Shown piece by piece: positions 15,010 through 33,189 of a stretch of DNA of 64,000 bases. The stretch spans positions 1,792,001 through 1,856,000 of the forward strand of contig OZ244197.1 of NCBI GenBank assembly GCA_965216785.1, read 5' to 3'. The notes beneath the pieces were generated by a model that was given only the letters and a program-made list of their open reading frames with translations, did no database searches and had not been told where the DNA came from. The translations under genes were made by a program, and so were the position numbers. This stretch comes from Thermodesulfobacteriota bacterium. Its GTDB lineage: Bacteria > Desulfobacterota_D > UBA1144 > Nemesobacterales > UBA2774. The first letter of the stretch is position 1, and each line of letters begins with the position of its first letter.

Positions 15010-15015
15010 TGTTTA
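14968..15015 (+). repeat. att direct repeat, left (48 bp; 5' half of tRNA plus 6-nt leader)
   Basis: ggattaggaatcctgcgctctatcctgctgagctacggggactgttta, identical to 33190-33237. Confidence 0.95.
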
Positions 15016-15021
15016 ATGATA

Positions 15022-16125
15022 TCAAGGGGTTATGAGCTTAATATTTCTATTGGTCTCGTCATCAGTGTCCAAATAGGTGACCGTTGGCGAGAATTGTAAG
15101 TGCTCAACAGCTTCCTTTTTGTGTTGGGGTGATGGGTGTATGTATCTTTTAGTAGTGCTTATATCTTTATGTCCCATCAGTTCTTGTATCGTAGCAATAT
15201 CTACACCAGACATTGATAGATTACTCCCGAAACTATGTCTTAGATCATGGAACCTTAAATGTGCTATCCCTGACCTTCTTAGAGCACCCCAGAAGGCCTT
15301 TTTTACCGTCTTGACTGGAATACCATTGGCTCCAGCAAAAAGGTGCTCACAATTGTTATTATTAATAACAGACTTTAGAGTCTTCATCAATAGGGAATTA
15401 ATCGGTACATGCCTAATATCTCCATTCTTGCTTTCTCTGACGAGTATATACCTGTCTCTAAGGTTTATGTCAGAAACCCTTAGATTAAGGATCTCAGACC
15501 TTCTTAACCCTGTATGTATGGCTATCATAAGGATAGGTTTTAGGAATTCAGAAGCTGCTGCATATAGTTTTGCGAACTCATCTATTGAGATCACTCGTAA
15601 TTGTTTAGGCTTTTCAGGAAATAATTTTACTTGAGCAACTGGATTGTTCGATATCATATTCCACTCAATTGCTTTTTTAAACATATGTTTCAGCATTGAA
15701 AGTTCTCTATTAATACTTGCCTTAGCAGGACTTTTACCATTTTTCATTATTTCCTTTTGCCGAGATGATTTATATTTTTCAACATGCCAGTTGGTAATTT
15801 GCTGGATTGTTCTTCCATTGAAATATCGCCTAAGATGTTTGGAGGATGTCATGTCTCTGTCATAAGAGTTTGGTCTTTTGTTCGCTTTTGAATATTCAAG
15901 ATATTGTGTAACCAACCTTTCAAATGGAGTTGGCTTGATAGCACTTTCTAATTTGAATTTACCTTGGGCCATTTCTGCTTTTCTTATAGACAAGGCTTTC
16001 TTAGCATCTTCACGATTAATTCTGGAAGGATCGACACCGGGGATTGAAACAACCTCTCGTTTCCTCTTCCCATTCGGCATATAATAATCTATGTACCATC
16101 TGTTACCTTTTCGATAATATCCCAT
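15022..16125 (-). CDS. Tyrosine recombinase/integrase
   Basis: TGLRRSE, SKNG, HDLRH, MGH, KRY catalytic motifs; N-terminal arm-binding-like segment RWYIDYY..GKRKRE. Confidence 0.95.
   Translation of the reverse strand: MGYYRKGNRWYIDYYMPNGKRKREVVSIPGVDPSRINREDAKKALSIRKAEMAQGKFKLESAIKPTPFERLVTQYLEYSKANKRPNSYDRDMTSSKHLRRYFNGRTIQQITNWHVEKYKSSRQKEIMKNGKSPAKASINRELSMLKHMFKKAIEWNMISNNPVAQVKLFPEKPKQLRVISIDEFAKLYAAASEFLKPILMIAIHTGLRRSEILNLRVSDINLRDRYILVRESKNGDIRHVPINSLLMKTLKSVINNNNCEHLFAGANGIPVKTVKKAFWGALRRSGIAHLRFHDLRHSFGSNLSMSGVDIATIQELMGHKDISTTKRYIHPSPQHKKEAVEHLQFSPTVTYLDTDDETNRNIKLITP
15064..15082 (+). repeat. Putative integrase arm-type sites, left arm (2 x GTGWCC, 12-bp period)
   Basis: agtgtccaaataggtgacc; 17/19 identical to 33054-33072. 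Confidence 0.65.
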
Positions 16126-16408
16126 ACTGCTTTCTCCTCTTGAATTTTTTCTCTAATTCTTCAAGTGGATCTATTTCTTTTTTTTCCTTTCCTACATATA
16201 TACAGTGAGTTTTGTTTTTATAAGTGAAGTACGCATACCAGTACAAACCGTGACCCGAACCCCCTTCTCTACACTTACTACAGCCACATTTCGAGGGCTT
16301 CTGCTGATAAACAACCGCTGGGGGTAAAAGAGTTTCTATATGATTATGGAGCTGTCGAAGTTCATAAACACTAAGTTCCTTTAAAATAGGAGCAATCTTA
16401 TCTAACAT
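16103..16408 (-). CDS. Small Cys/His-rich protein, DUF6788-like
   Basis: KCGCSKC....GHGLYWY..Y.GK motif; overlaps the integrase start by 23 nt. Confidence 0.6.
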   Translation of the reverse strand: MLDKIAPILKELSVYELRQLHNHIETLLPPAVVYQQKPSKCGCSKCREGGSGHGLYWYAYFTYKNKTHCIYVGKEKKEIDPLEELEKKFKRRKQYGILSKR

Positions 16409-16418
16409 TATTAGATAT
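16397..16418 (+). repeat. Palindromic site TATCYAA-N5-TTRGATA, copy at left cargo edge
   Basis: cttatctaacattattagatat; 18/22 identical to 31168-31189, with compensatory changes. Confidence 0.55.
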
Positions 16419-16542
16419 GCTACTACATTTTATCTTCAATTTCAAGACTCCTTTAAAATTGTTCGATAAGCATCATCCTGGAAGAATAATAATTCTTGTT
16501 ATATCATTTAAATGTTAGAGAGTTCTTCTCAGGATGTGAGGA

Positions 16543-18825
16543 ATGATAGAAAAAGTTGTATTTATAAAAAATATAGGGCGTTTTATTAACTGCAATGCGT
16601 ATGGCGACATCCATTTTCGTAAATGTAATCTAGTTTTTGCAGAAAATGGTCGTGGAAAAACTTCTTTTTGTTCTATTTTACGTTCCCTAAGTACTGGTGA
16701 GTCATCTTTTATTCAGGGTCGAAGAACACTCGGAACAGAAGAATTACCTGAAGTCCATTTAAGACTTGATGGGCAGAATTTCATTTTCAGAAATAATGAG
16801 TGGAATAATACTGTTCCCCATATAATGATTTTTGATGATAGTTTCATAAATCAAAATGTTTACTCAGGTGAAAATGTAGATGTAGATCACCGCCAAAACT
16901 TATATGACATAATAATTGGAGAAAGAGGTAAAGAACTTGCATCTGAAATCCGTAATATTGACAGAGATGTGCGAGATAAGAATGGGCGATTAAGCGAGGT
17001 TAGATCGGAGATAAGAGCATTAATACCAGAAGGAAGAATTGGATTTGAGGCTTTTCTGGATTTACCTTCTGATGGTGAAGTTGATAAGCGTATTACAGAG
17101 AAAGATAGGGAATTAGAAGCAGTTAAACAGTCAGCCATATTACAAAGAAGTCCAGTTTTAAAAACTATCATAATACCCAATATGCCTGAGGGTTTCTTTC
17201 CATTTTTGGCTAAAAGTTTTGATGAGATTGCTGAGGATGCTGAAAAGAAGATAGCAAGCCATATCGAAACCCATAAGATGCAAGATAGTGGAAAGGAATG
17301 GTTATTCGAGGGCTACAAACATATAGAAAAAGATAAATGTCCATTTTGTGCACAGGATTTGTCAAATTCAGAACTTATAAAATCTTATACTAGTTTTTTC
17401 AGTGAAGCTTACAATAAACTCAAAGAAGAAATTAAAATCTTGGAAGAAAGAATTCTCGAGGACTTTGGAGAAGTCAGAATTGCATCGTTAGTAACTAGTT
17501 TAGATAAAAACAAAGCTGCACTTGAATTCTGGAGACGTTATTCTGACCTAAAGGAACCTGTTTTTTCTGATAGCGAGAATCTTAAAGACTACATTTCGCA
17601 GGTTAGGGACATTGCTCAAGAATTACTAATCCAAAAATCACAGACACCCATAGAAAAAATTGAGCCTGATCCTGAGCAAAATATGCATTTTACCAAACTA
17701 AGTAGTTATATAGAGGGGGTTGAGACCTATAATAAGGGAGTCACTGAGGCGAACTCAATCATCCAAGAGATGAAGGAAAAAACACGATCAAGAAATCTTC
17801 GTGATGTCGAAGCGGAAATGATTCAATTAAAGTCAGTGAAGAAACGTCATGAAAGTGAAGTTGCAACAATTTGTGAGAATTATCGCCGATTACTTACAGA
17901 AAAACGAGCTCTAGAAACTAGTAAAATAAGGACTAGGGCATTGTTAGATACGCATACAGACGAAGTAATTGAACAATACGAAAATGCTATTAACCGTTAT
18001 TTAGATTATTTTAATGCGGGGTTCCAAATAGCTAGAACTAATTACGACTATATGGGTGGAACGCCTAATGCACATTACAAGATTTTAATTAATAGGACTC
18101 ATGTTGATCCTGGTAACTCATCATCACCTATTAGTGAGCCTTCTTTTAGAAATACATTAAGTTCTGGTGATCGTAGTGCGCTTGCTTTAGCTTTCTTCTT
18201 AGCGCAATTGGAGAATAATCCTGACAAAGCACAGAAGATAGTCATTTTCGATGATCCATTCAATAGTCAGGACGATTTTAGAAAGGGGAACACCGCACAC
18301 CGTATCAGACAGTGCGCACGCGAATGTACTCAGGTAATAGTATTATCTCATGACAAGCATTTTTTAAAACATGTGTGGGATGAACTACCGAGGGAAGAGC
18401 GTAAATCTATCCAATTTTTCCGAGTTTCAGAGGATTGTACAGATATTGCAGAGTGGGATATTGACACTGCTGTTCAAGCACGGTTTAAAGCTGATATTAT
18501 TACCTTATTGAAATATTACGGTAGCAACGAAGGAGATTCGAGAGATGTTGTAACTAAAATACGACCAGTTTTAGAAGGTTTTTGCCGTAATCTCTATCCT
18601 ACGAAGTTTAGTGAAACTGATACATTAGGTGTGATCGTAGAGAAAATACAAGAAGAGGGTTCAGGTTTTCCTCTTCATTCTATCCATGAAGAATTAGAGG
18701 AGATAAATATTTACAGTCGTAGGTATCACCATAGTGATAATCCAGAGTTCGCTACTGAACCGATCAATGATGCAGAGTTGAAAGGATATATTAAAAGAAC
18801 TCTTGCTGTCACTGGATATTTTTAA
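16543..18825 (+). CDS. AAA_13 / RloC-like Rad50-type ABC ATPase, putative anticodon nuclease
   Basis: Walker A AENGRGKT, coiled coil with CPFC zinc hook, LSSGDR signature, Walker B IFDDP, LSHD H-loop, C-terminal domain with NIYSRRYHH. Confidence 0.75.
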   Translation: MIEKVVFIKNIGRFINCNAYGDIHFRKCNLVFAENGRGKTSFCSILRSLSTGESSFIQGRRTLGTEELPEVHLRLDGQNFIFRNNEWNNTVPHIMIFDDSFINQNVYSGENVDVDHRQNLYDIIIGERGKELASEIRNIDRDVRDKNGRLSEVRSEIRALIPEGRIGFEAFLDLPSDGEVDKRITEKDRELEAVKQSAILQRSPVLKTIIIPNMPEGFFPFLAKSFDEIAEDAEKKIASHIETHKMQDSGKEWLFEGYKHIEKDKCPFCAQDLSNSELIKSYTSFFSEAYNKLKEEIKILEERILEDFGEVRIASLVTSLDKNKAALEFWRRYSDLKEPVFSDSENLKDYISQVRDIAQELLIQKSQTPIEKIEPDPEQNMHFTKLSSYIEGVETYNKGVTEANSIIQEMKEKTRSRNLRDVEAEMIQLKSVKKRHESEVATICENYRRLLTEKRALETSKIRTRALLDTHTDEVIEQYENAINRYLDYFNAGFQIARTNYDYMGGTPNAHYKILINRTHVDPGNSSSPISEPSFRNTLSSGDRSALALAFFLAQLENNPDKAQKIVIFDDPFNSQDDFRKGNTAHRIRQCARECTQVIVLSHDKHFLKHVWDELPREERKSIQFFRVSEDCTDIAEWDIDTAVQARFKADIITLLKYYGSNEGDSRDVVTKIRPVLEGFCRNLYPTKFSETDTLGVIVEKIQEEGSGFPLHSIHEELEEINIYSRRYHHSDNPEFATEPINDAELKGYIKRTLAVTGYF

Positions 18826-18914
18826 AAATTGATAATTAAAACCAGTGAGACTTCTAATAATAGTAATTGGCTCATACCGATTAAAACACTCTCACAAGAA
18901 TGTTTGAAAAAATT

Positions 18915-18931
18915 CTTTCACCAGATGAAAG
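18915..18931 (+). repeat. Palindromic island repeat CTTTCA-CCAGA-TGAAAG, copy 1
   Basis: Exact 17-bp match to 20147-20163 and 30988-31004. Confidence 0.85.
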
Positions 18932-19049
18932 TTTCAAGCTGGGTGATCAGAAGCTTGACCGAAATTTAGAAGATGATCTATCTCATGAAAGTGTAGTCTC
19001 AAACGCTACAAAAGTGTAAACTATGTTAACCGGAATTCCTATGAATCTT

Positions 19050-19670
19050 TTAGTTTCCAAAAATTATTTGAATTGCTTCTGTCGCAGAGTATGGACTTAA
19101 TCCAGTTTTTTCCCAAATCTCGGGATCGGCATCACGAGGCCATATAAGACTTGGTGTGATCTTCTTACTGGCTCCATTCAAAGGATAAGCTTTATCTATC
19201 AGTACAATCCAAATCAATTTTCGTTCAACACCATCAAAATTAGTTCTAGGATCATACACAAATACGCCATCACCTTTTGGATTGTTCATTGTCAAAAACT
19301 CTCTTCCCCCGACCTTTAATTGATTAGGTGCAATTGATTGTATTACAATTCCTCGAGCATAATGGTTGGGTTTAGAGATTGATAGTACTTGTGATTTATA
19401 TTTATAAGTCTCGGGAGATTTTTCTTTTTGGTATTCACGTATAGTTGCATAGCACCTGATATTAAAAAAAGTATCATCAAGATATATTTCTTTACATTCT
19501 TTTTCCATGCAAGATACATCTGGTCCACATTTTTCATAGATTTTTTCGACTTGTTCTTGAGACATTGAAAATTCTCTCTTCTCTATCTGATATTCATCTC
19601 CTAGTGTTTCCAGACAGTACACATTAAATATCAGTATGAATAAGATAAATCCTGTAATTGGTTTAGTCAT
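19050..19670 (-). CDS. Hypothetical exported protein
   Basis: N-terminal hydrophobic signal; AGGAGG upstream; no recognised motif. Confidence 0.6.
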   Translation of the reverse strand: MTKPITGFILFILIFNVYCLETLGDEYQIEKREFSMSQEQVEKIYEKCGPDVSCMEKECKEIYLDDTFFNIRCYATIREYQKEKSPETYKYKSQVLSISKPNHYARGIVIQSIAPNQLKVGGREFLTMNNPKGDGVFVYDPRTNFDGVERKLIWIVLIDKAYPLNGASKKITPSLIWPRDADPEIWEKTGLSPYSATEAIQIIFGN

Positions 19671-19869
19671 TGGTTGTCCTCCTTTTATTTATCGAGAATC
19701 ATGTTTCCATAGCTACCATCATGCATATATTCATTTAGCTAGTTAAATATCCACCGGAATCTAACCAACTTTATAAGTCTTGTTTATAAAAGTCGCATTA
19801 TACTGATTATTGTTATGTATTCAATAGTCTATGGTTTTAGTCACGATTTGACCAGAAGATATTGCCTAT

Positions 19870-20118
19870 ATGGCAACTCGGATAAATAAGAAACTTGTCA
19901 CAGCATTTGCAAGAGCTTTAAAATCTATCCGTCTTGAAAAAGAGCTCACTCAGGAGCAAGTAGCATATGCTGCTAAAGTTCATCGCACATATATTGCTTT
20001 CCTAGAAGGCAGGAGAAAACAACCTTCTATTGATGCAGTATTTAAGATAGCAAATGGTTTAGACATTAAACCGAGTGAATTAATAAGGAGGGTAGAGACA
20101 TATTATTCTAAAAAATGA
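19870..20118 (+). CDS. XRE-family HTH regulator (C-protein-like)
   Basis: LTQEQVA..AKVHRTYIAFLEGRRKQPS HTH_3 motif. Confidence 0.85.
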   Translation: MATRINKKLVTAFARALKSIRLEKELTQEQVAYAAKVHRTYIAFLEGRRKQPSIDAVFKIANGLDIKPSELIRRVETYYSKK

Positions 20119-20145
20119 TGGGTTTCATAGATGTAATGTTGCCCT

Positions 20146-20169
20146 TCTTTCACCAGATGAAAGAATTTC
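20146..20169 (+). repeat. Palindromic island repeat, copy 2
   Basis: tctttcaccagatgaaagaatttc, 24/24 identical to 30987-31010. Confidence 0.85.
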
Positions 20170-20400
20170 CTAGTAGGGATGAGGTTTGAATGAGATTAAA
20201 GCCAGATATCTTCTCCGAAAATCACCCAGCTCCTACTTGATACAGATTCAAAATCCATCGGCTTTATTCAAATACCCTTACGATTCGCTCTCTCCAGCAT
20301 GTCACAGACAACGGAATTTTCGCTTAGGATGTGGGAAATGACAACAATAAGATCAACCGCATGCTCTTATAACATGATTTGATTGCGGCGTTTATAACCA

Positions 20401-20583
20401 AGGTCTCCTAATTCTTTCGGGAGGCTCGATAAAGAGGGGCTGATGAATTATCTGGCAATCCCTTTACACCTGAACGTGCTTACAGTGCTTCCGTTTGGCT
20501 ATTTTGATGAGAGCCTCGGGGGTGGAGATAAATTCAGGAGGAGTCCCGAAGAGGTGTTTCATTTAAATAGGTTCGGGGAGTGA
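20401..20583 (+). pseudogene. Nitroreductase C-terminal remnant
   Basis: Startless frame ...LDKEGLMNYLAIPLHLNVLTVLPFGYFDESLGGGDKFRRSPEEVFHLNRFGE* resembles nitroreductase C-termini; upstream part is degraded. Confidence 0.55.
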
Positions 20584-20713
20584 CTATAGGTGCCGAGGAG
20601 AATTTTTACCGGATGGCCTTTATTTACACCCGGCGAGTGTTTGAGTACGCATCTTTTATTTATACAAGCCACTCTGCTATACTTAAACCAGACTTGCTCA
20701 AAGGATGCAATAA

Positions 20714-21940
20714 TTGAATCCAATTGAAATAATTGTCGATATAGCCAGAGAAGTCGGGATTTCTGGTTTCTTGGATATAGCATTTATTACGATATTTATA
20801 TATGCAATCCTGGTGCTGTTTAAGCAGTCAAAAGCAAGATTTATTATTACAGGCATTCTTATATTAAGTGTAGTATATCTTATAGCCCGACAATTAAATC
20901 TAGCCTTAACTACATCTCTTCTCCAAGCCTTTTTCGCGGTCATCTTGCTTGCTCTTATTATTATCTTCCAGGAAGAAATAAGGCGCCTTTTTGAGCACAT
21001 TGCACTATGGAGCTTAAATCCTAAAGTAAGGTCAAATAAGACTACCAGTCCTGACAATAAGGAAACAGGAATTCTTGTTGATACTCTTTGTGATTTGGCT
21101 CAGCATAAAATTGGAGCGCTCATTGTAATCAAAGGTAAAACGGATTTATCTGGATATTTGGAGGGCGGTGAGATATTAGATGGGAGCATCAGCGAACCTC
21201 TTCTTAAGAGTTTATTTGACCCACATTCGACAGGCCATGATGGAGCAGTGGTAATAAGTAAAGGGAGAATAACATTTTTTGGCACTCACCTTCCCCTATC
21301 AAACAACTTTTCTCAACTTAAAAATAGAGGCACCCGTCACGCGGCTGCACTCGGAATATCGGAAGTTACCGACGCGCTTTGTCTTGTTGTTTCAGAAGAG
21401 AGGGGAACCATATCAATTGCCCATACCGGTGAACTAAAACAAATCGGCTCGGAACAACTAAACATTACTCTTGAGTCTTTTTATGAAGACATAAACCCGC
21501 CTGCTAAAAAAATGCCTCGTTTGGATTTCTCTCGGAATTATAAAGAGAAAATACTAGCATTACTCGCAGCTATAATTCTTTGGTTCGTATTCGTACATGA
21601 ATCAAGAACTGTTTACAGAAGTTTTGAGATACCAATTGAGCATACAACTCTTCCAGCCGGTTTCAAAGTTAAAGAAATAGATCCAGATAAAGTAAGCGTT
21701 ACTTTTTTAGGACCTAGAAGAGAGTTCTATTTCTTTAATGAGAACCAGGTCAGTTTAATACTGAAAATCCCAAATGCCGAACACGGTTTAGAACGCATTG
21801 ATATTTCCGAGTCCAACATTAAGTTTCCAAATGATCTATCTTTAGAAGATGTCGAGCCAAGAACAGTTACTGTACACATTGAAAAAATAGAAGCATTGAA
21901 TAAACAAGGGGATAATTTAAAAAACCAAGATCCTAGGTAG
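20714..21940 (+). CDS. dacA: Diadenylate cyclase CdaA/DacA with fused C-terminal TM and YbbR-like domain
   Basis: 3 N-terminal TMs, FQEEIRR, HDGA, GTRHAAALG, VSEERG; extra TM and YbbR-like tail. Confidence 0.85.
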   Translation: MNPIEIIVDIAREVGISGFLDIAFITIFIYAILVLFKQSKARFIITGILILSVVYLIARQLNLALTTSLLQAFFAVILLALIIIFQEEIRRLFEHIALWSLNPKVRSNKTTSPDNKETGILVDTLCDLAQHKIGALIVIKGKTDLSGYLEGGEILDGSISEPLLKSLFDPHSTGHDGAVVISKGRITFFGTHLPLSNNFSQLKNRGTRHAAALGISEVTDALCLVVSEERGTISIAHTGELKQIGSEQLNITLESFYEDINPPAKKMPRLDFSRNYKEKILALLAAIILWFVFVHESRTVYRSFEIPIEHTTLPAGFKVKEIDPDKVSVTFLGPRREFYFFNENQVSLILKIPNAEHGLERIDISESNIKFPNDLSLEDVEPRTVTVHIEKIEALNKQGDNLKNQDPR

Positions 21941-21954
21941 GGGAGGACACACCT

Positions 21955-23268
21955 ATGGAAACAACTACACCACTTTTGCCCTATGTGCAAAAATTCTTTG
22001 AATACGATCCTTTGACTGCAACCCACGCACTTGAAACTATGGATGAGGAGGAGGCAATCAAGATACTCACCATTCTTCCGGCTTCTATGTCCTCAAGTAT
22101 CTTTCGAAGATTGCCCACCGAACTAGCTGCGTCGCTGCTTGAAAAGGTCCCGCCCGAGACATTTATAGAAATTGCGGAAAAAATGGAGCCCCAGCAGGGC
22201 GCTACAATACTCATGCACATAACTGATGAAATAAGAACCAGAATGCTGACACACTTGCCGGATAAGACCAAGATGGCAATACAAGAGATACTGACTTATC
22301 CGAAGGGAAGTGTGGCTAGTATTATGACCACTAAATACGTAGCATTCCATAAAGATATTAGAATTTCAGATGTAGTTGAAAACATCCGTCAAAGAGCTCA
22401 TTCCAAAGCTCCGCCAGCGAGTTATGTATATGTTATAGACAATGAAAATCACCTGATTGGTGTCCTCAATATGCGTGATCTCATAATTGCAGATTCCGAT
22501 TCAAAGCTTGAATCAATAATGATAAAAAATCCGTATTGTATAAACGCTTTTACAGAGAGGGAGGTTGCGGCTAATGAGCTCGCCGACCGAAAATATTTTG
22601 CAGCTCCCGTAGTCGATAATGAAAACCACCTTTTGGGCATAGTAAAAGCCGATCAATTAATCAGCCAAGCTCAAGAAGACGCAAGTGCAGACCTTCAGAA
22701 AATGTTCGGAGTATCTCCAAGTGAGCATGTATTCTCATCGATTAAATTTTCTCTTACTAAACGACTTCCCTGGCTTCATATTAACTTGGTTACCGCTTTT
22801 ATGGCCGGGTCGGTTATTGCTATATTTGAGGGGATCATTGCTAAGATTACTGTTTTAGCCATATTTCTCCCTATAATTGCTGGCCAGGGCGGTAACGCTG
22901 GTTCCCAGTCATTGGCTGTAGTGATGAGGGGGCTTGTAATGAGGGAAGTTTCACCAAGAGAGACAAAGCAATTGGTGATGAAAGAGGCTAAACTCGGTCT
23001 TATAAATGGCGTAGTAATAGGATTTGTTACTGCGCTTATTGCTTGGATGTGGAAAGGTAATCCATACCTTGGACTCGTGATTGGACTTGCTATGATAGTG
23101 AACTTAGTGGCCGCAGGTGTTTCAGGAGCAATTATTCCCCTTACTCTCAAAGCATTCGGACAAGACCCCGCTCAGTCTTCAGCTATCTTACTCACCACTG
23201 TGACCGATATTATAGGATTCTTTTCATTTCTCGGGTTTGCTATGATATTCCAGAGTTTATTAATATAG
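21955..23268 (+). CDS. mgtE: Magnesium transporter MgtE
   Basis: MgtE_N, CBS pair, RLPWL, GGNAGSQ, DPA..S..LTTVTD. Confidence 0.93.
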   Translation: METTTPLLPYVQKFFEYDPLTATHALETMDEEEAIKILTILPASMSSSIFRRLPTELAASLLEKVPPETFIEIAEKMEPQQGATILMHITDEIRTRMLTHLPDKTKMAIQEILTYPKGSVASIMTTKYVAFHKDIRISDVVENIRQRAHSKAPPASYVYVIDNENHLIGVLNMRDLIIADSDSKLESIMIKNPYCINAFTEREVAANELADRKYFAAPVVDNENHLLGIVKADQLISQAQEDASADLQKMFGVSPSEHVFSSIKFSLTKRLPWLHINLVTAFMAGSVIAIFEGIIAKITVLAIFLPIIAGQGGNAGSQSLAVVMRGLVMREVSPRETKQLVMKEAKLGLINGVVIGFVTALIAWMWKGNPYLGLVIGLAMIVNLVAAGVSGAIIPLTLKAFGQDPAQSSAILLTTVTDIIGFFSFLGFAMIFQSLLI

Positions 23269-23319
23269 CGTTGACCGATAAACTAACAAATTAGTTCGCT
23301 CTGCTGAGATTGCGTTCTA

Positions 23320-24342: not shown

Positions 24343-24378
24343 AAGCTCCTTTCCTTATAACACTTAGAGATATGATTA

Positions 24379-25401
24379 TTAACCCTTAGGACCTTTCCTT
24401 TTTGCTAATTCTTGCATGTCTTCATGAATATCGAGCTCGTCCACTATCTCTTCGCCTATTAGGGACTCGATAATGTCCTCCAAAGTGACAATACCCATAT
24501 ACTCATCCTTTGAGTTCTTCACACAGAATAGATGTCTTCTTGTTAAGATAAAACGCTTAAGCAGCTCGTTCAGATGCATATCCTCGGGCACGATGTCAGG
24601 AGGTATCATAACACTCCTTAATGTTTTGTTACCCTCACCTCTCATTAGAGCCATATAGACATCGCTTCTTAAAGCCACGCCTACTATATTGTCAGGTTGC
24701 CCTTCTGTATAAACAGGAATTCTGCTGTAATGCCAGTAGTCCGAATCCAGGTCTATATTCCCCAGTATTGTGCTGTCCGGCATCTCCATTACTACGGATT
24801 TGGGTGTGTAGATCTCCTTAACCCTCAACTCGTCCAGCCTGAGTGCGTTTGTTACAATTTCCGCCTCCTCGGGCAGTATTCCGCCACCATGATGCGTAAG
24901 CTCGGCAAGGCTCTTTAAATCATCTTCCGTTGGGAAGTTCAGGTGAGAATTCTTGCCCCACAGGCTTGTAATAAACACGCTCAGTTTTACAAAAGGCCAT
25001 AGTATTTTGATGAGAAAATCAATCAGTATGGACAAGCGTGGAGCGAGGGCGTTTGCATAAGTTACTCCCAGGGACTTTGGAATAATTTCGCTGAATATCA
25101 AAACTCCCCCTGTAAATAGGCCGGAAAAAACTCCGAGCCAAGTATCCCCGTAATACCTGGCAACCAGAGAGCCCGCAATGGACGCCCCGATTACGTTTAC
25201 AGCAGTGTTGAGAGTTAGTATAGCTGCTATAGGCTGATCAATATTATCTCTTAGTCTGGCCAGCCTTATCCCGCCCGGGTCACCTTCCCGCTTCAAAGAC
25301 TCGATCCTGCTCCGGGGAATGGAATATATTGCAGCTTCCATAAGCGAGCAGAAAAACGATCCCAATAAGCTGATTCCTGTTATTATTGCAATAGCGTACA
25401 T
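24379..25401 (-). CDS. CNNM/CorC (DUF21 + CBS) putative Mg2+ exporter, paralog B
   Basis: Same motifs and same 340-aa length as the neighbouring paralog. Confidence 0.88.
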   Translation of the reverse strand: MYAIAIITGISLLGSFFCSLMEAAIYSIPRSRIESLKREGDPGGIRLARLRDNIDQPIAAILTLNTAVNVIGASIAGSLVARYYGDTWLGVFSGLFTGGVLIFSEIIPKSLGVTYANALAPRLSILIDFLIKILWPFVKLSVFITSLWGKNSHLNFPTEDDLKSLAELTHHGGGILPEEAEIVTNALRLDELRVKEIYTPKSVVMEMPDSTILGNIDLDSDYWHYSRIPVYTEGQPDNIVGVALRSDVYMALMRGEGNKTLRSVMIPPDIVPEDMHLNELLKRFILTRRHLFCVKNSKDEYMGIVTLEDIIESLIGEEIVDELDIHEDMQELAKRKGPKG

Positions 25402-25439
25402 AGATCAATTCCTTCCCTTTAGGCAACTAAGTGTAGCAC

Positions 25440-26396
25440 TCAGTTATCGGCTGTGTCCTCTATACCGACATTGATGAGAGCGTCTCCCCTATTTACAATC
25501 GGTAGACTTCTGATACCGATTATATAACCGTCCGTGCTAGTTCTTATTTTATGTTCAGTCTCGCCAAAGGGGTCGGTAATGCTCGCGATGATTTGGCTTT
25601 TCTTGACTTTCTCACCATATTCTACAAAAGCTCTATAAATTCCCGAGTTCCTTGCACGTATCCATGAAGTACTTCTAATCTCTACAGAGCTCTTTCGTTT
25701 TTGTGGATTTACTTTCATCATTTTTAAATGCTTCATGAGCCGCTTGATTCCCTCCATCCCTTCCTTAATTGCAAGCTCATCGAAGCGGAGTGATTCCCCG
25801 CCTTCGAAAACAAGAATAGTTTTCCCCTCTTTATGCGCCGATTTTCTCAATGAATCGTCTCTTAGTTTAGAATTTATTATAAAAGGTGGAGCGAAGGCAC
25901 GGGCCAGAGTTAAATTGTCCGGCGCATCAAACGTACATCTCACCTGTGGATAATTATTATTTGCCCCTCCAGTGTGCAGATCGACTCCATAATCAATTAC
26001 AGGCATTATTTTACTCATCAAAGTATGAGCTACTCGTGAAGCGAGTGAGCCGGTTTTTGTACCCGGAAAACTCCTGTTAAGATCCCTGCCGTCCGGAAGA
26101 TACCGGGACTTGTTTAAAAAGCCATAAACATTAACGATGGGCACAGCGACTACCATTCCTGCGGATGGTATTACTGACTGGTTAACTATCAAACGTCTGA
26201 TTGTTTCAATACCATTTAGCTCATCTCCATGTATACCTGCCATAATAAGAAGACTGGGCCCTTCCTTTTTACCTCTGAAAACAAATACAGGCAAGTCTAT
26301 CATTGTATGCGTCGGCAGTTTTGCGACGTTCAAGTTTATTTGAGCGTTCTGCCCAGGTGCTATTTCTTCACCATTTATTACTATGGTTTCTGGCAT
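25440..26396 (-). CDS. Succinylglutamate desuccinylase/aspartoacylase (AstE/AspA, M14) family
   Basis: AGIHGDELNG, DLNRSFPG, DLHTG; C-terminal biotinyl-like domain. Confidence 0.9.
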   Translation of the reverse strand: MPETIVINGEEIAPGQNAQINLNVAKLPTHTMIDLPVFVFRGKKEGPSLLIMAGIHGDELNGIETIRRLIVNQSVIPSAGMVVAVPIVNVYGFLNKSRYLPDGRDLNRSFPGTKTGSLASRVAHTLMSKIMPVIDYGVDLHTGGANNNYPQVRCTFDAPDNLTLARAFAPPFIINSKLRDDSLRKSAHKEGKTILVFEGGESLRFDELAIKEGMEGIKRLMKHLKMMKVNPQKRKSSVEIRSTSWIRARNSGIYRAFVEYGEKVKKSQIIASITDPFGETEHKIRTSTDGYIIGIRSLPIVNRGDALINVGIEDTADN

Positions 26397-27305
26397 TTAT
26401 GATTTTACTCTATCTTTTATTAGTCTTTTGCGGTGAGCGTTTTCTTCTACAAACTCAATGATTTTTGATGCAACATCAATACCACTGGCTTTTTCAATAC
26501 CCTCAAGACCAGGGGATGAATTGACCTCCATAATCTTGGGGCCCGTACTGGATTGCAGCATGTCTACCCCGGCAACGTTAAGCCCGAGTAGCTTAGCTGC
26601 TTTAATAGCGGTCGAGCGTTCGCTTCTGCTAAGTTTGATTTCATTAGCGCTTCCACCACGGTGTATGTTTGAGCGGAACTCCCCTTCAGCGCCCTGTCTT
26701 TTCATAGCCCCTACGACTTTCCCACCTACAACGAACGCCCTTATGTCAGCTCCCTTAGATTCTTTTATAAACTCCTGAATGAGGATGTTAGCCTGGATAC
26801 CATAAAAGGCTTCCAAAACGGATTTTGCAGCTTTTTTGGTTTCTGTAAGTACGACTCCGATACCCTGTGTGCCTTGAAGGAGCTTTATTACTAGTGGAGC
26901 TCCCCCAACTTCCTCTATCAGGTGGTTTATATCGTCAGGGTCCGATGCAAAAGCGGTAACCGGCATTCCGAGTCCCGCGCGTGAAAGTATTTGCATACTG
27001 CGAAGTTTATCTCTTGACCTCACAATCGCCTGTGACTCGTTTACCGGGAACACATGCATCATTTCAAACTGTCTGACAACAGCAGTACCATAGAAGGTTC
27101 TTGAAGCGCCAATCCTCGGAATAACAGCATCGATCCCTGTGAGTTTTTCCCCATCGATATATATCTCTGGATTCTTTTTCTCTATCACCATGTAGCATTT
27201 CAGAAAATCTAACACTTGAACATCGTGCCCTCTCTCCTGAGCAGCCTCTACGAGTCTTTTAGTAGAATAAAGATTCTCGTTTCTCGACAATATGGCTATC
27301 TTCAT
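26397..27305 (-). CDS. rimK: RimK alpha-L-glutamate ligase (ATP-grasp)
   Basis: [52 protein letters not shown]. Confidence 0.95.
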
Positions 27306-27766
27306 TTTTGTCTCCCTTTGTTTTTATGCTTATATGATAGATTCGATTTAGTTACATCGACAACAAACCCCTCTTTCAATAATTTTCTGCCTAATAGTAT
27401 GGGTTTTCCCATTTTTGAGCGGTCACTTAAAGAAATCTCTATATCATAATTTTCCCCGAAAAGCCTTATGGAAGTCTTAATTATGCATCTTTTCTCCGAT
27501 ATACCAAACGAACTTTTGACATTCCTTATTGCGTGTAGCTTTACTCTGAACCTCTTTTCGTCATAATCTGGATGTGAGGGATCGAGAAGATTGAAAGTTA
27601 CATATTTTTGCCCGTCCTTCTCTTTTACTTTGATATTGTGGCAGTGTATTGACGATGTGTAGGCACCTGTGTCTATTTTTGCGTCAATGTCATAAAGCCT
27701 CATTCTTGGAAAGTCAACTTTATCTCTTCTGCCAATTAAGCGTTTTTCTGTTCTATTTTTAGACAT
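27302..27766 (-). CDS. RimK-associated retropepsin-like protease (RimB-like / 'ATP-dependent Zn protease')
   Basis: [25 protein letters not shown]; 4-nt overlap with rimK. Confidence 0.85.
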
Positions 27767-27825
27767 CTATATGCTTGATATTATTACACAGATATATCAT
27801 TATGTAACTAGAGGACGGTGCATTA

Positions 27826-29622
27826 ATGTTTGATTTTGTGACACAGCTGGACGATTTTTTCCTAGCACTATATGTTCATCTAACTTCCAATATAAAAGAC
27901 GAGTTAGCAGCTGCCGCAGTTCTTCTCGTAGTTTTTGTGGTAACGCTTCTTGTGCATAAAAAAGCAATCGGGTTTCTCCTACGCACCCAATGGAAGTTCA
28001 AGCCGTATGTACTGTTTCTCATAGCTCTCGTCTTTCCGCTTATTTATATTCTTATCGTAATTGGGGCGGCTCCACATTTGAAAGGTGGATTGACTCTAAT
28101 ATTATTCTCCTCTCTTGCTTATTTCTATCTTGGCTTTTACCTAATAAAGAACCTGCTTGAACCGCTCAGGATAAACAGCGTACCATGGAAGATTATTTCA
28201 TATGTATTATTATTATTGACCGTAATTTTCAACGCATTAGTTGATCTAAACACGCAGTTCTTTAAAAGCCCCGATTTACAAGAAGTATTCTCCATATTTT
28301 TCAAAGTCTCTGCAATACTGCTTATTTACATGTTTTTACTCAGAGCACTTAGGTTTTTAACTGAATTTCTTCCAGAGCGGCAAATAGTTGCGAAACATAT
28401 TATAGAGAGCCTCATAAGCGTAGTGTCGGTTCTATATATTATCCTCGCAGCGCTCTGGCTCTTTAAATTAGTCGGGTTCGCATCATCGCTATTTGTCGGC
28501 GGCGTGGCTGTATTTATTGCCGTAGTGGGCTATGGGCTTCTCAAATCTTTTGCTGCTAGTTATCTGGGGCCGAAAACAGATGGAAATCCTTCATATAGTG
28601 CGTTGCTAAAGAGTATTGAATCTTTCCTCATTCTGCTGCTGATCTATGTTCTATACATTATATTCAAACTCTCTTTTAACCTGGAGCAGGTTCATCACTT
28701 CCTTTCCGAGGCGTATCTAGTAAATACAGGCGTGATTGTTATATCTTTATTCTCTCTAGTTTCTGGGCTCTTCATGTTCTTCTTTTTACTTTCAATGATG
28801 GGGATCTTAAAACAAATAGTTTATTTCTACAACATGAAGCTCGGCAGGGAGCTCGAAGCGGCTTCGCTCAGGTCTTTGGTATCTAATCTCGGCCTGTTGA
28901 TCGTAATAATGATTGCCCTTTCCGGGATCGGCCTTACATGGAAAGCATTACTCCCCATAGCGGGTGCTCTGGGAATAGGTATTGGGATTGGGCTCCAAAC
29001 TATTATGAATAACTATCTTAGCGGCTTCATACTCTTATTCAGTAAGCGCCTTAAGATTGGAGACATTATAGAATTTGACGGTAATGCGGGTAGAGCTATT
29101 GGGAATACATTAGAGACCATATATGGTCGTGTCGTAAGTATTGATACATTTTCAAGCGTAGTAACGACTACTGACGGCATCGAAATAGTTGTCCCCAACT
29201 CACAATTTATAGATAAGCAGATGGTAAATTATTCACTTTCTGACTATACAATCAGGGTTAGGATTCCTTTCGGTGTCTCCTATTCTGCAGATCCCAATAC
29301 AGTAAAAGATATACTTTTAAAAGTAGCCAATGAAAATACTCAAATACTCAGGTCTCCCGAGCCCGGCCTTTGGTTTACGGAATATGCCGATAGCGCCCTG
29401 GTGTTCTATCTGCTTTGCTGGGTTAATATCAAGGACATTTGGAAAATAAAACCTGTCATTAGCGATATTTACTTCAAGAGCTGGTATGAGCTGAAAAAAG
29501 CCGGTGTAGTCATACCATTCCCGCAAAGAGATGTGTGGTTTAAAAATAATCTTAAGGTCGAGATAGAGAAAGATCTCGGAGAGCACTTTCAAAAGAAACC
29601 GGGCGACTGGGGAGGTGAATAA
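27826..29622 (+). CDS. MscS-family mechanosensitive channel with extended N-terminal TM region
   Basis: GALGIGIGIGLQTIMNNYLSG, VPNS, GVSY, IPFPQRDV. Confidence 0.9.
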   Translation: MFDFVTQLDDFFLALYVHLTSNIKDELAAAAVLLVVFVVTLLVHKKAIGFLLRTQWKFKPYVLFLIALVFPLIYILIVIGAAPHLKGGLTLILFSSLAYFYLGFYLIKNLLEPLRINSVPWKIISYVLLLLTVIFNALVDLNTQFFKSPDLQEVFSIFFKVSAILLIYMFLLRALRFLTEFLPERQIVAKHIIESLISVVSVLYIILAALWLFKLVGFASSLFVGGVAVFIAVVGYGLLKSFAASYLGPKTDGNPSYSALLKSIESFLILLLIYVLYIIFKLSFNLEQVHHFLSEAYLVNTGVIVISLFSLVSGLFMFFFLLSMMGILKQIVYFYNMKLGRELEAASLRSLVSNLGLLIVIMIALSGIGLTWKALLPIAGALGIGIGIGLQTIMNNYLSGFILLFSKRLKIGDIIEFDGNAGRAIGNTLETIYGRVVSIDTFSSVVTTTDGIEIVVPNSQFIDKQMVNYSLSDYTIRVRIPFGVSYSADPNTVKDILLKVANENTQILRSPEPGLWFTEYADSALVFYLLCWVNIKDIWKIKPVISDIYFKSWYELKKAGVVIPFPQRDVWFKNNLKVEIEKDLGEHFQKKPGDWGGE

Positions 29623-30063
29623 TGTCTTCGAGGCTAGTAAAAAAGACATCAGCCAAAAAGGCCTACGACCGGGCTCACTAATTTACATTGGCGAACAAAA
29701 AGTCGATAAAGTCAGAATCAGGGTAATAGATTACGATGAGAAGAACCTAATTGAGTATGAATATGAAAGTATTGAAGAAACCTTTTCATTCAAAGATAAC
29801 AATTCTGTTTCATGGATAAATATAGACGGTCTACACGATGTGGAAGTTCTCAGAAAATTAGGCGAAAATTTCGGAATTCATAATCTCGTTCTTGAAGATA
29901 TTTTAAACACTGACTTCCCTGACTTTTATAGCCGGCCTTTACGGAATGAATTTTGATAATATGCCGGAGCTACATAAGAATTGGGGCTACCCTATAGTTA
30001 TTATCGTTATAGTAGTTGTAGCAGTAGGAATGATATATTATTTTAAGAAAAAAATGGTTTTAG
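29622..30063 (+). pseudogene. corA: CorA Mg2+ transporter pseudogene (internal deletion plus frameshifts)
   Basis: N-terminus MSSRLVKK../GLRPGSLIYIGE..WINIDGLHD..LEDILNT joined at ~29913, in another frame, to [21 protein letters not shown]; frameshifts in A-runs at ~29655 and ~30050. Confidence 0.85.
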
Positions 30064-30114
30064 TTGTTGTTTCTTAAATCGATAGTTATCGGTCAAGGAC
30101 TGAATGGGGACACT

Positions 30115-30960
30115 ATGAAAATTGCTGTAACAGCAGCGAGTGGGCATTTGGGTGCCGAGATAGTCAAGGCAACTGTTCAGCTTGTTGGTAAAGGTAACGT
30201 TGTCGGGCTTGCACGCACGCCTTCCAAAGCCGAACATCTTGGTATTGAAATTCGGAGGGGTGATTACGGTTCCAAGAAAGATTTAATGAAAACGCTGCGA
30301 CACGTGGACACCCTCTTGTTGGTATCCGGTATGGATGATCCTATAAAGCGCATTGATCAACACCGTAATGTAATTTATGCTGCCAAGTATGCTGGTGTGA
30401 AGAAGATTGTCTATACCAGCATTCAAGGTGCTGAGAAGCATACGGCTTTTTCTCCAATAATTCAAAGCAATCGCCAAACTGAGTGTGATTTACATCTCTG
30501 CGGATTAGATTGGGTAATTGGGCGCAATGGAATTTATATTGAATCAGACATTGAGTGTATAGCAACCTACAAGGAGAAGGGAGAAATCGCAAATTGTGCT
30601 GGCGATGGAAGATGTGGTTACACCACCCGGCCCGAATTAGCGTATGCCTATGCCCGAATCTTGACCGAATCCAAGCACAATGGTAGAACATATAATCTGC
30701 ATGGAGAACCGATTACACAGTATCAGCTAGCAGCTTATCTAAACATGACGTTTGGCACCAACTTGACATATAGACCTATGACAGTAGAAGAATATCGCCA
30801 AGATCGTATTACGGAATTGGGTGAATCAATGGGTAATATTATAACTGGCATCTATCAGGGAATTCGCGAAGGAGCATTGTTTAACATCAGCCATTATACT
30901 GACGCAACTTCCAGATCCCATCAAAGTTGGGAAAATTATTTCAATGCTCTGAAAATATAA
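30115..30960 (+). CDS. NmrA/atypical SDR NAD(P)H-binding oxidoreductase
   Basis: MKIAVTAASGHLG, GVKKIVYTS, RNGIY; ATG at 30115. Confidence 0.85.
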   Translation: MKIAVTAASGHLGAEIVKATVQLVGKGNVVGLARTPSKAEHLGIEIRRGDYGSKKDLMKTLRHVDTLLLVSGMDDPIKRIDQHRNVIYAAKYAGVKKIVYTSIQGAEKHTAFSPIIQSNRQTECDLHLCGLDWVIGRNGIYIESDIECIATYKEKGEIANCAGDGRCGYTTRPELAYAYARILTESKHNGRTYNLHGEPITQYQLAAYLNMTFGTNLTYRPMTVEEYRQDRITELGESMGNIITGIYQGIREGALFNISHYTDATSRSHQSWENYFNALKI

Positions 30961-30986
30961 GAATAATACTTTATATTTTTGTGTAC

Positions 30987-31010
30987 TCTTTCACCAGATG
31001 AAAGAATTTC
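30987..31010 (+). repeat. Palindromic island repeat, copy 3
   Basis: Identical to 20146-20169. Confidence 0.85.
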
Positions 31011-31167
31011 AGATGTATCCGCTCTTATTTCTTAGTAATTCGTATTTTATATAGACTGTGAACTTTGTGAGCCTATGTATAGTTATACAGGAACATCATT
31101 CAAGCTAGATATTATGTAAAATGCTTGCAACACAAAACGAGTATAGGGATCGCCACTTATACTCATT

Positions 31168-31189
31168 CTTATCCAATAGTATTGGATAT
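31168..31189 (+). repeat. Palindromic site TATCYAA-N5-TTRGATA, copy abutting the rep stop codon
   Basis: tatccaata-g-tattggata perfect palindrome at 31170-31188; second hairpin gagtata..tatactc at 31139-31164. Confidence 0.55.
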
Positions 31190-31674
31190 TATTTTCGGGT
31201 TCTATTAACTTCAGGGAAAACTAATTGCCCCTTATTAGTTTTGGGTGAGTAAAAATCAATCTCACTACCAAATCTAATGCTCTTAGTCAAATAAAATTTC
31301 GCTCCTAATTCAGGATCGTAATCATAAATACGAGCAAAACCATTTATGCTTTCATCTTCGTTTAAATTGAAGTTTTTTTCCCATAAATACATGTATTTCA
31401 GCTTATCTAATTTCCATACATCTCCGCCCATTAAAAAATGAAAGTGAATGACATTCCTTTTTTGATTTTCTAATACATAAACCCATGTTACGCCTAAATT
31501 CTTTTCTCTATATCTTCTGCCGTGAAGTTGCTGGTTTATTTTTTTTATGAAAGTGAAGAATCTTCTCTTAGCTATTTCAGGGTGAATTTGTTGCTGAAAT
31601 GTAAGTGTTCCATACCAATGGAAGGGTTCTAGCATAGATATTAGCTCAATCCAACCTAACTCTATAGGTCGCAA
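31189..31674 (-). CDS. Minimal HUH endonuclease / rolling-circle replication initiator-like protein
   Basis: Motif I GTLTF, motif II IHFHFLM, motif III YLTK in the canonical order. Confidence 0.7.
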   Translation of the reverse strand: MRPIELGWIELISMLEPFHWYGTLTFQQQIHPEIAKRRFFTFIKKINQQLHGRRYREKNLGVTWVYVLENQKRNVIHFHFLMGGDVWKLDKLKYMYLWEKNFNLNEDESINGFARIYDYDPELGAKFYLTKSIRFGSEIDFYSPKTNKGQLVFPEVNRTRK

Positions 31675-31693
31675 ATATGACTCATTAATATAA

Positions 31694-31885
31694 TTAATTA
31701 TAGCTCACCTCCACTCTATGTTTTTCAAGGAAATTCTCGAATTCAGATTGGTTGATTAGTATCTTTTTTTGGATTCGGTAGTGGGCAATCATTTTGTAAC
31801 GAATCCAATAATAAATCGTTGTTACATTGATTCCATATAATGCTGATAAGTCTTTGGGGGAGAGTTTCTTATCTTTGCTCTTCAT
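31694..31885 (-). CDS. Excisionase-like HTH_17 DNA-binding protein
   Basis: LSPKDLSALYGINVTTIYYWIR..I..YRI..KILI; 63 aa. Confidence 0.8.
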   Translation of the reverse strand: MKSKDKKLSPKDLSALYGINVTTIYYWIRYKMIAHYRIQKKILINQSEFENFLEKHRVEVSYN

Positions 31886-32063
31886 CTATCTCCACCTCAG
31901 CTAATTCACAGAGTCGACGTATTTTTTGCTCAAATATATTTAGCTCATCTGTTATCAATGAATAGAATGATAGAGCTTCACCTTTGTCTGCTGAAACAAA
32001 CGCTATGGTCTCTATGCCTTTAGGACTTAGGGTTAAAGCTACGCGACCTCTATTGAATCCCAT
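31869..32063 (-). CDS. Hypothetical protein
   Basis: AAGGAG RBS; co-oriented with and overlapping the xis-like gene. Confidence 0.5.
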   Translation of the reverse strand: MGFNRGRVALTLSPKGIETIAFVSADKGEALSFYSLITDELNIFEQKIRRLCELAEVEIDEEQR

Positions 32064-32128
32064 ATTTAACTCCTTAAATACTCTTCATGTATATAAGGGA
32101 AAAAACAGAGGGTTTTTAAAGGGGGGTT

Positions 32129-33034
32129 TTATAATTCGTTCATTTCTTTCTTTAAGTTCTTTTTAGCAGCTACTTCTAATTGACTTATTCTAGTTACAGA
32201 TATCTTTAATTCCTTCGCAGCTTCTGTCTTGTTAAAACCTTTGAAATACAACAATTCTATCACTTTTCGCTGTTGATCTGTAAGTTTCATTAATTGATTT
32301 TTTAGGTATTCCAGATCATTTATCAGAAAGATATCTTCCTCTAGATGAAAAGTATTATCATCAAACTCTTCAGGAATACCTTTCTGGAGTTCACCAAGTT
32401 GATATCTGATGCTGTCTTTGACTCGGAATGGTAACTTTTCTAAGTCTTCCAGGAGAGAAAAGAGCATTGAATCCTTACTTGTATCAAATGCATTTCTTAG
32501 AGTACTCTCAAATTCTTCTTGTAATAGTTCTTCTGGTAAGTCTTGTATATCTTTATGAAAAAGAAACTTTACTTCTCGTTCATGCTTTATATAGACACCA
32601 TATCTCTTGGATACTTTGGCAGTTGCATATCTGAGTTCATCCAATAATTGTCTATCGTCGTCAAGTATTCGTCTGAATCTGGGATAACCGTATTTTGGAT
32701 ACTCCTTTTCGAGGAACTTTAATATATTTCTCCATCGAGTGATGTATTCAGGAGTGCACATCACCCGTATAGCAAACATGGTATCCTTAGAAGAGTCAGT
32801 TATATCTTGGACGTAATATTCATTTTGTGTGCCGAAATATTGATCAATGATTTCAGCAGCTATATCTAATATTTTTCCATTCAGAGATTTATTTGAATCG
32901 ATACACTTATCCTTTGAAATGACTACAGCCTTTTCATTTTCGAATACCCTAATCTCAAATTTATCCAAAGTTTGGGCAATAGGTTCCGCTCTTTTCCGAA
33001 AATTCTTAACTTCAAGCTCACTTGCAGTAGGCAT
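32129..33034 (-). CDS. Protein with C-terminal sigma-70 region 4 HTH
   Basis: LTDQQRKVIELLYFKGFNKTEAAKELKISVTRISQLEVAAKKNLK; N-terminal part unrecognised. Confidence 0.7.
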   Translation of the reverse strand: MPTASELEVKNFRKRAEPIAQTLDKFEIRVFENEKAVVISKDKCIDSNKSLNGKILDIAAEIIDQYFGTQNEYYVQDITDSSKDTMFAIRVMCTPEYITRWRNILKFLEKEYPKYGYPRFRRILDDDRQLLDELRYATAKVSKRYGVYIKHEREVKFLFHKDIQDLPEELLQEEFESTLRNAFDTSKDSMLFSLLEDLEKLPFRVKDSIRYQLGELQKGIPEEFDDNTFHLEEDIFLINDLEYLKNQLMKLTDQQRKVIELLYFKGFNKTEAAKELKISVTRISQLEVAAKKNLKKEMNEL

Positions 33035-33042
33035 TGTATTAA

Positions 33043-33072
33043 GTGTTCCTTTTAGTGACCAAATAGGTGTCC
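33043..33072 (+). repeat. Putative integrase arm-type sites, right arm (3 copies, 12-bp period)
   Basis: gtgttc (33043), gtgacc (33055), gtgtcc (33067). Confidence 0.65.
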
Positions 33073-33189
33073 TTTCTGGTTATAAATACTCTACATATTC
33101 TAAATATACAAGTGTATTTGTAGGTGGAAATGTTTAATGTTCTTAGATAAATACTATGATTTGAGATACTTAGTAGTATACGTTCAATC

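Follow-up and report, generated by a model that had tools for sequence, protein, structure and literature searches.

An integrated island at tRNA-Arg(CCT) with a small HUH rolling-circle initiator and a likely replacement tRNA promoter inside its integrase gene

What kind of mobile element combines a small HUH rolling-circle initiator (Rep), an excisionase-like protein (Xis) and an integrase with a large cargo and has no recognisable capsid or conjugation genes? The question is raised by a stretch of 64,000 nucleotides from a Thermodesulfobacteriota bacterium (assembly GCA_965216785.1, contig OZ244197.1, positions 1,792,001 to 1,856,000), which is called the window here and whose positions are used throughout. 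A preliminary description, made from the letters alone, regarded the locus as a helper-dependent rolling-circle element outside the named classes. Our analysis points to an integrated, non-self-transmissible island that provides tRNA-Arg(CCT) with its 5' half, that would be excised by integrase and Xis and replicated as a rolling circle by the HUH Rep, and whose integrase gene would carry a promoter for the tRNA; we give this reading a probability of roughly 0.6.

The element covers window positions 14968-33237 (18.2 kb) and is bounded by perfect 48-bp direct repeats, of which there are just two copies genome-wide. The features that define its ends are as follows.

33190-33237, minus strand: attachment (att) repeat on the host-promoter side, with a 6-nt leader and the displaced 5' half of tRNA-Arg(CCT); 48/48 identical to 14968-15015
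14968-15015, minus strand: att repeat giving the 5' half of the restored tRNA
14935-15009, minus strand: restored tRNA-Arg(CCT) (ARAGORN; Rfam, 71.5 bits), the sole CCT tRNA of the genome
15022-16125, minus strand: tyrosine integrase of 367 amino acids (aa), reading outwards into the tRNA (PF00589, 2e-37; phrog_1, 2e-76; catalytic-motif stretches found)

The stop codon of the integrase gene lies 6 nt from the att repeat. In a genome of the same genus (G002, locus L142) the tRNA gene is uninterrupted and both sides match the host flanks, which gives the empty site. The arrangement is that of the Islander criteria, in which a tRNA gene and a co-oriented end fragment surround a tyrosine integrase, here with the 5' fragment upstream (PMC4383910). 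The GC content is 33–37% in the backbone and outer cargo, 41% in the inner cargo and 45–49% in the flanks, and an Rfam scan found only the tRNA.

The remaining genes of the backbone are listed below, with helix-turn-helix abbreviated as HTH and open reading frame as ORF.

16103-16408, minus strand: DUF6788-like small Cys/His protein, a recombinase companion (Pfam, 0.003)
31189-31674, minus strand: HUH rolling-circle initiator, 161 aa from a TTG codon (PF23343, above cut-off)
31694-31885, minus strand: Xis-like HTH_17 protein (PF12728, 1e-9; TIGR01764)
31869-32063, minus strand: conserved 64-aa ORF without family; a sister island in this genome has a homologue with 50% identity
32129-33034, minus strand: 301-aa protein with a C-terminal sigma70 region-4 (sigma-r4) HTH (PF04545, residues 248-296)

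The sigma-r4 protein, the 64-aa ORF, the Xis-like protein and Rep stand at one end of the element and the DUF6788-like gene and the integrase at the other, in two blocks inside the att repeats that measure 2001 and 1393 bp, 3394 bp in all. The coordinates and Pfam matches confirm the named genes of the preliminary description, all on the minus strand, and the measured length agrees with the about 3.4 kb that it expected without cargo; its gene positions stood, and its span left out the integrase and both att sites and missed the 64-aa ORF. It had also claimed that capsid and conjugation genes are absent, and no capsid, Zot, relaxase, coupling-protein or type IV secretion system (T4SS) family was matched by Pfam among the 19 element proteins scanned. 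The same scan gave no match to a major capsid protein, small terminase or primase/helicase of the kind found in phage-inducible chromosomal islands (PICIs), and 2 of the 19 proteins were without any family match. Matches to PHROG terminases (E 0.008–0.016) map onto the HTH of the sigma-r4 protein. Actinomycete integrative and conjugative elements of the pSAM2 type have an FtsK-like translocase, TraB; in the element no FtsK-family match was found by Pfam, and a RepSA match reached 22 bits against a cut-off of 34.

The Rep carries HUH motifs I (T23-F26), II (H77, H79) and III (Y128, K131). H77 and Y128 show no variation in an alignment of 82 sequences, and T25, F26, H79 and K131 very little; aligned were the window Rep, four relatives that are close or local, and 77 of the 150 representatives listed. 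The predicted model (pLDDT 91.9) suggests a single domain with no room for a helicase, so that the earlier account of motifs I–III without a helicase held. The model aligns best to SIRV1 ORF119 (Z 10.1, root-mean-square deviation 2.7, 106 residues), and AAV5 Rep reaches Z 7.7. PF23343-type Reps are numerous, with 547 cluster representatives matching at E ≤ 0.001, and the window Rep has no Pfam match to PF02486, PF01719 or PF02407, which together with PHA00330 are the initiator classes listed in PMC5357655. The sole match in a phage collection is the cultured inovirus XacF13 (MN335248; 26% over 96% of the query), and a plasmid collection gave one marginal match. Nine viral loci with this Rep comprise six inovirus-like ones (Zot confirmed by Pfam in the two tested), one large phage and two small contigs of 2.2–2.5 kb with terminal repeats. 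The 14 loci from genomes comprise four integrase islands with direct repeats, a cut-off integrase locus, an inovirus-like prophage, a tandem array, a virus-like locus, four loci cut by contig ends and two not itemised by gene. The four islands (L030, 62-bp repeats at tRNA-Leu; L041, 48 bp at tRNA-Asn; L036, 20 bp; L033, 18 bp) belong to four phyla-level lineages, and no virion genes were seen in their ORF lists, which were read rather than fully scanned. The PF23343-type Rep family is thus common to filamentous phages, circles of about 2 kb and att-bounded islands. Two circular replicons of 2.0–2.3 kb (L021 and L022) encode hardly more than this Rep and an HTH protein, and in a Halieaceae genome five tandem copies of a Rep-regulator unit of about 2.2 kb lie between insertion sequence (IS) copies (L038:733-12076).

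Downstream of rep lies a short motif that recurs across the family.

31098-31104, minus strand: candidate nick site CTTGAAT, 84 nt past the Rep stop

In 21 of 24 loci the core CTTGA is found in the 170 nt that follow the rep stop, compared with 2 on the antisense strand and 5 upstream, and 300 shuffles give 3.7 ± 1.8 with a maximum of 9. Five loci had been dropped from the test set beforehand: L022 (a near-copy), L035 (a duplicate), L029 (cut), and L013 and L043 (distant). Eleven of the 21 sites fold at z < -2. Plasmid pC194 is presumably nicked at the core of its origin. That core is the same CTTGA (PMC7072734, Table A2). Conservation of position and sequence makes CTTGA after rep a likely rolling-circle origin or nick site of this Rep family. 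The three-copy palindrome described below was also considered as nick site and was rejected because other rep loci lack it and have CTTGA instead.

The integration leaves the restored tRNA gene at the far end of the island from its native upstream region, and a second element of interest bears on this.

33255-33288, minus strand: promoter-like element of tRNA-Arg(CCT) on the host side, 18–51 nt beyond the edge of the island
15360-15393, minus strand: copy of the tRNA upstream element within the integrase coding sequence, 31/34 identical to 33255-33288

The host-side motif is found upstream of tRNA-Arg(CCT) in 17 of 29 family loci. With a matrix built from 16 of the 17, the same-genus locus being left out, a genome-wide scan put the integrase copy at the top with 34.7 bits, ahead of the host copy with 30.5, and the next site reached 10.9. 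In comparison with the integrase of L081, which has the same target (74% nucleotide and 52% third-position identity), the copy is the most conserved 34-nt window (33/34). Moreover, among 36 integrase rows (7 with a co-oriented tRNA behind the integrase, 16 with an opposed one and 13 without adjacent tRNA, the mode being inferred from orientation), six of the seven co-oriented rows match one of two native motifs at 21–31/34, and none of the 16 opposed rows exceeds 19/34. By relatedness the six motif-bearing integrases make up about two groups, and an opposed-type member that lacks the motif is nested among them; they therefore represent few independent cases. These comparisons suggest that the 34-bp copy is likely a replacement promoter for the split tRNA gene. 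Islands that give the 5' half of the restored tRNA, as here, are on record, a 5' tRNA gene fragment occurring in 159 of 3919 islands of PMC4383910; that paper makes no mention of promoters, whereas here the upstream element of the target is copied in the integrase coding sequence. A second 5'-half island of the host, at tRNA-Ser(TGA) (L007; C1:1598983-1618944), has an integrase without a copy of the native upstream sequence.

That the backbone of the preliminary description is a fixed new unit is not supported by the host genome. This genome has three such Reps, at the ends of three differently built islands, two with a tyrosine and one with a serine recombinase. The second lies in a 23-kb island at tRNA-Ala in the order xis, Rep, cargo, small unrelated gene, integrase; a 304-aa ORF beside this Rep (L004), first taken as sigma-like, proved unrelated. 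The third ends a 32-kb island in comM with a large serine recombinase (C1 about 862.7–894.9 kb; L005, L020), in which a 2181-aa polyketide-synthase-like ORF was also noticed. Sister islands of the same genome with the same split layout have DnaB-like, RepB-primase, archaeo-eukaryotic primase (AEP) or HTH_36 replication genes. Since three modules occur apart and are recombined in the sister islands, the backbone is a mosaic and not a fixed unit, its replicase is exchangeable, and the island is one member of a modular Dadabacteria-type island family. Among 120 genomes of the class the Rep occurs in 3, the DUF gene in 13 and both in this genome (G000) alone. The Rep nearest to that of the window (74%), a homologue of the DUF protein (67%) and the nearest sigma-r4 homologue (61%) are on contigs of equal longest size, 61,481, and another Rep/DUF pair shares the contig size 69,158; the full set thus probably recurs on one other contig, a conclusion drawn from equal contig sizes and not from sequence. 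Two further elements of this genome were noticed in passing. One, a sister island (L001:4060-9371), combines a sigma-r4 gene and the 64-aa ORF with a gene for an HTH_36 protein and a tandem pair of small-terminase genes; it is PICI-like and belongs to a tandem array at tRNA-Pro. The other measures 6 kb (L002:3377-5644; C1 about 109.8–116.0 kb), is bounded by a 5' half of tRNA-Pro and encodes an integrase and a family-B DNA polymerase (PF03175); it is either pipolin-like or new.

As for the label DUF6788-like, the Atlas shows a resemblance of 0.90 to DUF6788 clusters, and the Pfam score of 18.1 bits falls below the cut-off of 27.2, as does that to NCBIfam UBP (16.4 against 90). Its predicted fold gave no Foldseek match at E ≤ 0.001 and none at Z ≥ 5, so that this check, proposed in the preliminary description, yielded nothing; the best match was VIA (Z 3.8), with UBP at E 1.4–2.0, and a sequence match to a solved structure, a cytochrome, was discarded as spurious. 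Of 43 metagenome loci with the DUF gene, which are mostly short and lie at many different tRNAs, 34 have at least 500 nt downstream, and in 33 of these a recombinase stands directly behind the gene; the HUH Rep was found in none of the 43, and viral contigs gave one weak match to the DUF gene. We therefore assign the protein to recombination modules. That it might be a free arm-binding domain is an idea suggested by just one 26-residue Cys-knuckle match, to integrase L062. Two integrases (L062:446-1582 and L108:989-2143) have an N-terminus with a DUF6788-like Cys-knuckle. In the sigma-r4 protein Pfam recognises region 4 only, the N-terminal part could be assigned to no family, and the NCBIfam match to extracytoplasmic function (ECF) sigma factors is 34 bits with a cut-off of 42.9; it has two homologues at 60–61% identity and one at 26% in a sister island, and is likely a regulator of the element.

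From these modules the following course may be proposed. The tyrosine integrase and Xis would excise the island, and excision would join the integrase to the sigma-r4 gene, making the 3.4-kb backbone contiguous on the circle, across attP. The small Rep would then nick just downstream of rep and start rolling-circle replication, with a host helicase unwinding the circle. The DUF6788-like protein may assist or regulate the recombinase, the sigma-r4 protein may regulate the xis-rep operon, and the promoter copy inside the integrase gene would keep the split tRNA gene expressed. The earlier proposal of an integrative cargo element of rolling-circle type is upheld by the att repeats, the empty site of the relative, the intact integrase, the HUH fold and the origin-like motif.

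Several observations weigh against this reading. Neither a circle nor single-stranded DNA (ssDNA) nor nicking was seen. Rep starts at a TTG or an ATA codon, not at an ATG. Foldseek with the Rep model, another check named in the preliminary description, returned nothing at E ≤ 0.001, although HUH nucleases occupy many of the top rows, and it is the structural alignment to SIRV1 ORF119 that gave the positive outcome; in the fold ranking, ribosomal protein S6 comes second (Z 7.8). The CTTGAAT of the window has no hairpin signal (z 0.0), has a chance level of 12% when taken alone, and is outside the top six matches of the family matrix within the element. Furthermore, the motif is absent in 3 of the 24 loci, including the circle L021 with both strands checked, and in XacF13 it lies at +251, beyond the test window. 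A consensus sigma-70 scan called neither promoter copy. Finally, co-occurrence of the full backbone elsewhere, the outcome of the proposed neighbourhood check, rests on equal contig sizes.

The element resembles several described systems. Streptococcal integrative mobilizable elements (IMEs) with a rolling-circle replication (RCR) initiator (Coluzzi et al. 2017, PMC5357655) likewise have a tRNA-type integrase, Xis and a stand-alone initiator and no T4SS; they differ in that here TcpA is absent, the Rep is of PF23343 type, integrase and rep are at opposite ends and the host is a Gram-negative environmental bacterium. Tycheposons (bioRxiv 10.1101/2020.12.28.424599) and VEIMEs (PMC9618062) are, as here, tRNA-integrated cargo shuttles of 10–20 kb that have an integrase and an excisionase, carry a small replication module at the other end and lack capsid and conjugation genes, but their integrase faces inwards, whereas this one faces outwards, and the replicase here is an HUH nuclease and not a primase/helicase. 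Integrated pCRESS plasmids (Kazlauskas et al. 2019, PMC6668415) share an HUH Rep, site-specific integration and the lack of virion proteins, but their Reps bear a superfamily 3 helicase, which the Rep of 161–170 aa here does not. Because islands with integrase, Xis and an RCR initiator are already in print, this is not a new class. The element is ordinary in kind, and what is unusual is its Rep family, its mix of modules and the promoter copy. The literature searched, mostly open-access, yielded no account of the backbone as such, none that names PF23343 and no case of a tRNA promoter carried by a bacterial integrase gene; the supplements of PMC6668415 may list the Rep cluster.

The alternative that survives best, though we consider it unlikely, is that the element is an IME whose Rep doubles as relaxase and whose circle is moved by the T4SS of a conjugative element. 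In its favour, the combination of integrase and RCR-type initiator without a T4SS is what defines a putative IME operationally, and RCR initiators have been proposed as relaxases (both in PMC5357655); as it fits this definition, the element is less outside the known classes than the preliminary description stated. On the other hand, it has no coupling-protein match, the streptococcal examples have adjacent rep-xis-int, usually with TcpA, and in the host genome (92% complete) a search for four helper families, namely Zot, VirB4, VirD4 and one capsid family, gave no match.

The lack of a Zot match in that search also counts against a satellite of filamentous phages (RS1/TLC-like), with ssDNA circles extruded by an inovirus, which appears improbable. 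The Rep family and the origin-like motif are common to inovirus-like genomes: the gpA-type Rep of XacF13 is homologous, metagenomic inoviruses share the motif after rep, and an ssDNA-binding protein of inovirus type is encoded together with the Rep in island L036. However, a morphogenetic module (Zot/pI ATPase, coat proteins) is defining for Inoviridae (PMC6668415), and here there are no Zot/pI, coat or ssDNA-binding genes but a length of 18 kb and a host-like cargo. A tree of 37 rows places the window Rep with Reps of cellular context (P0002-P0005 and P0008; 99/97) and away from the six of inoviruses, the branch between the labelled groups being weak (66/81).

An equally small chance is left for a once-mobile island whose replication module has decayed and which is kept passively for its ion-transport and defence cargo. 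The non-ATG start of Rep, the weak origin hairpin, a broken corA and a contig depth near that of the flanks would suit it. In run X3 the depth is 84.9 for the element with 75.9 and 80 for the flanks, and in run X5 it is 93 with 92.1 and 76.3. Neither excess copy number nor an attP joint was found in the contigs of runs X2, X3 and X5 of one study, which may be that of the source sample and from which depth was taken (run X1 covers just short pieces); the 48-bp repeat forms its own contig, and a circle is therefore not distinguishable in them. Against decay, the backbone frames are all intact and the two att repeats do not differ. Moreover, the rep frame has no stop up to 31701; an ATA codon there, preceded by a well-placed GGAGG, would give 170 aa (the closest relatives have 170–171 aa), and a stretch of 128 nt after rep folds at z -2.6. 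That Rep and its motif are instead an independent small mobile unit (IS91/Helitron-like) landing at island ends is very improbable: the three Reps at three differently built islands and weak Helitron-like matches (E 0.013 and E 0.12) would accord with it, but Rep fills the post-xis slot held by DnaB-like or primase genes in sister islands, its start overlaps the xis stop, and no Rep was seen outside islands in this genome.

Returning to the non-self-transmissible, rolling-circle island, the one basis for its helper dependence is the absence of transfer genes. By analogy with tycheposons and VEIMEs, for which non-specific carriage in vesicles or phage particles has been proposed (bioRxiv 10.1101/2020.12.28.424599; PMC9618062), we tentatively prefer, at a little under even odds, such carriage of the circle over a dedicated helper. 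A wider reading, more speculative and rather doubtful, is that an undescribed family of capsid-less integrative replicons in several phyla would combine a minimal inovirus-type HUH Rep, a downstream CTTGA origin and integrases whose own coding sequence has evolved a copy of the split tRNA promoter. On integration the element would take over the control of a tRNA present in one copy, and its partial loss would be penalised. With CTTGA, a Rep family that has not been characterised and that connects chromosomal islands with filamentous phages and tiny circles would gain a testable origin motif. This is relevant to the persistence and movement of islands without known transfer genes. The promoter copy would give a concrete answer to how a tRNA is expressed after an island enters at the front of its gene, with one sequence under both protein-coding and promoter constraint.

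The cargo between the two backbone blocks consists of the following features.

16543-18825, plus strand: AAA_13 ATPase, a candidate defence protein (PF13166; PADLOC PDC-S06, 1.5e-72)
18914-18931: palindromic site, copy 1 of 3
19050-19670, minus strand: 206-aa protein with a hydrophobic N-terminus, without family
19870-20118, plus strand: XRE-type HTH protein (PF01381, 3e-10)
20146-20169: palindromic site, copy 2, left edge of the inner cargo, 24/24 identical to 30987-31010
20714-30960: inner cargo, 41% GC, with cdaA-like (cyclic di-AMP cyclase-like), mgtE, two CNNM paralogues, AstE/AspA-like, rimK, Zn protease, MscS, broken corA and NAD(P)-binding protein genes (Pfam)
30987-31010: palindromic site, copy 3, right edge of the inner cargo

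The inner cargo is a 10.8-kb block edged by identical 24-bp palindromic sites, and host paralogues of its genes were examined together with GC content. The palindrome has a 5-nt spacer, and its three genome copies all lie inside this island, at the borders of cargo blocks. It is present in 2 of the 120 genomes, a fourth copy lying close to the same tRNA in G018 (L171:1502). It is possibly a cargo-exchange or operator site, with no enzyme identified. Within the block, the corA-like gene (29615-30040) has an internal deletion and a frame change, and the two adjoining CNNM paralogues (23320-25401) are 59% identical. A non-coding stretch at 20233-20576 is 74–82% similar to C1:99081 and C1:1011587 and has no Rfam match. 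An AAA_13 relative of the cargo ATPase adjoins this Rep family in a gammaproteobacterial element (L037:10486-12765). Outside the island, three 45-nt tandem repeats occupy window positions 61856-61990.

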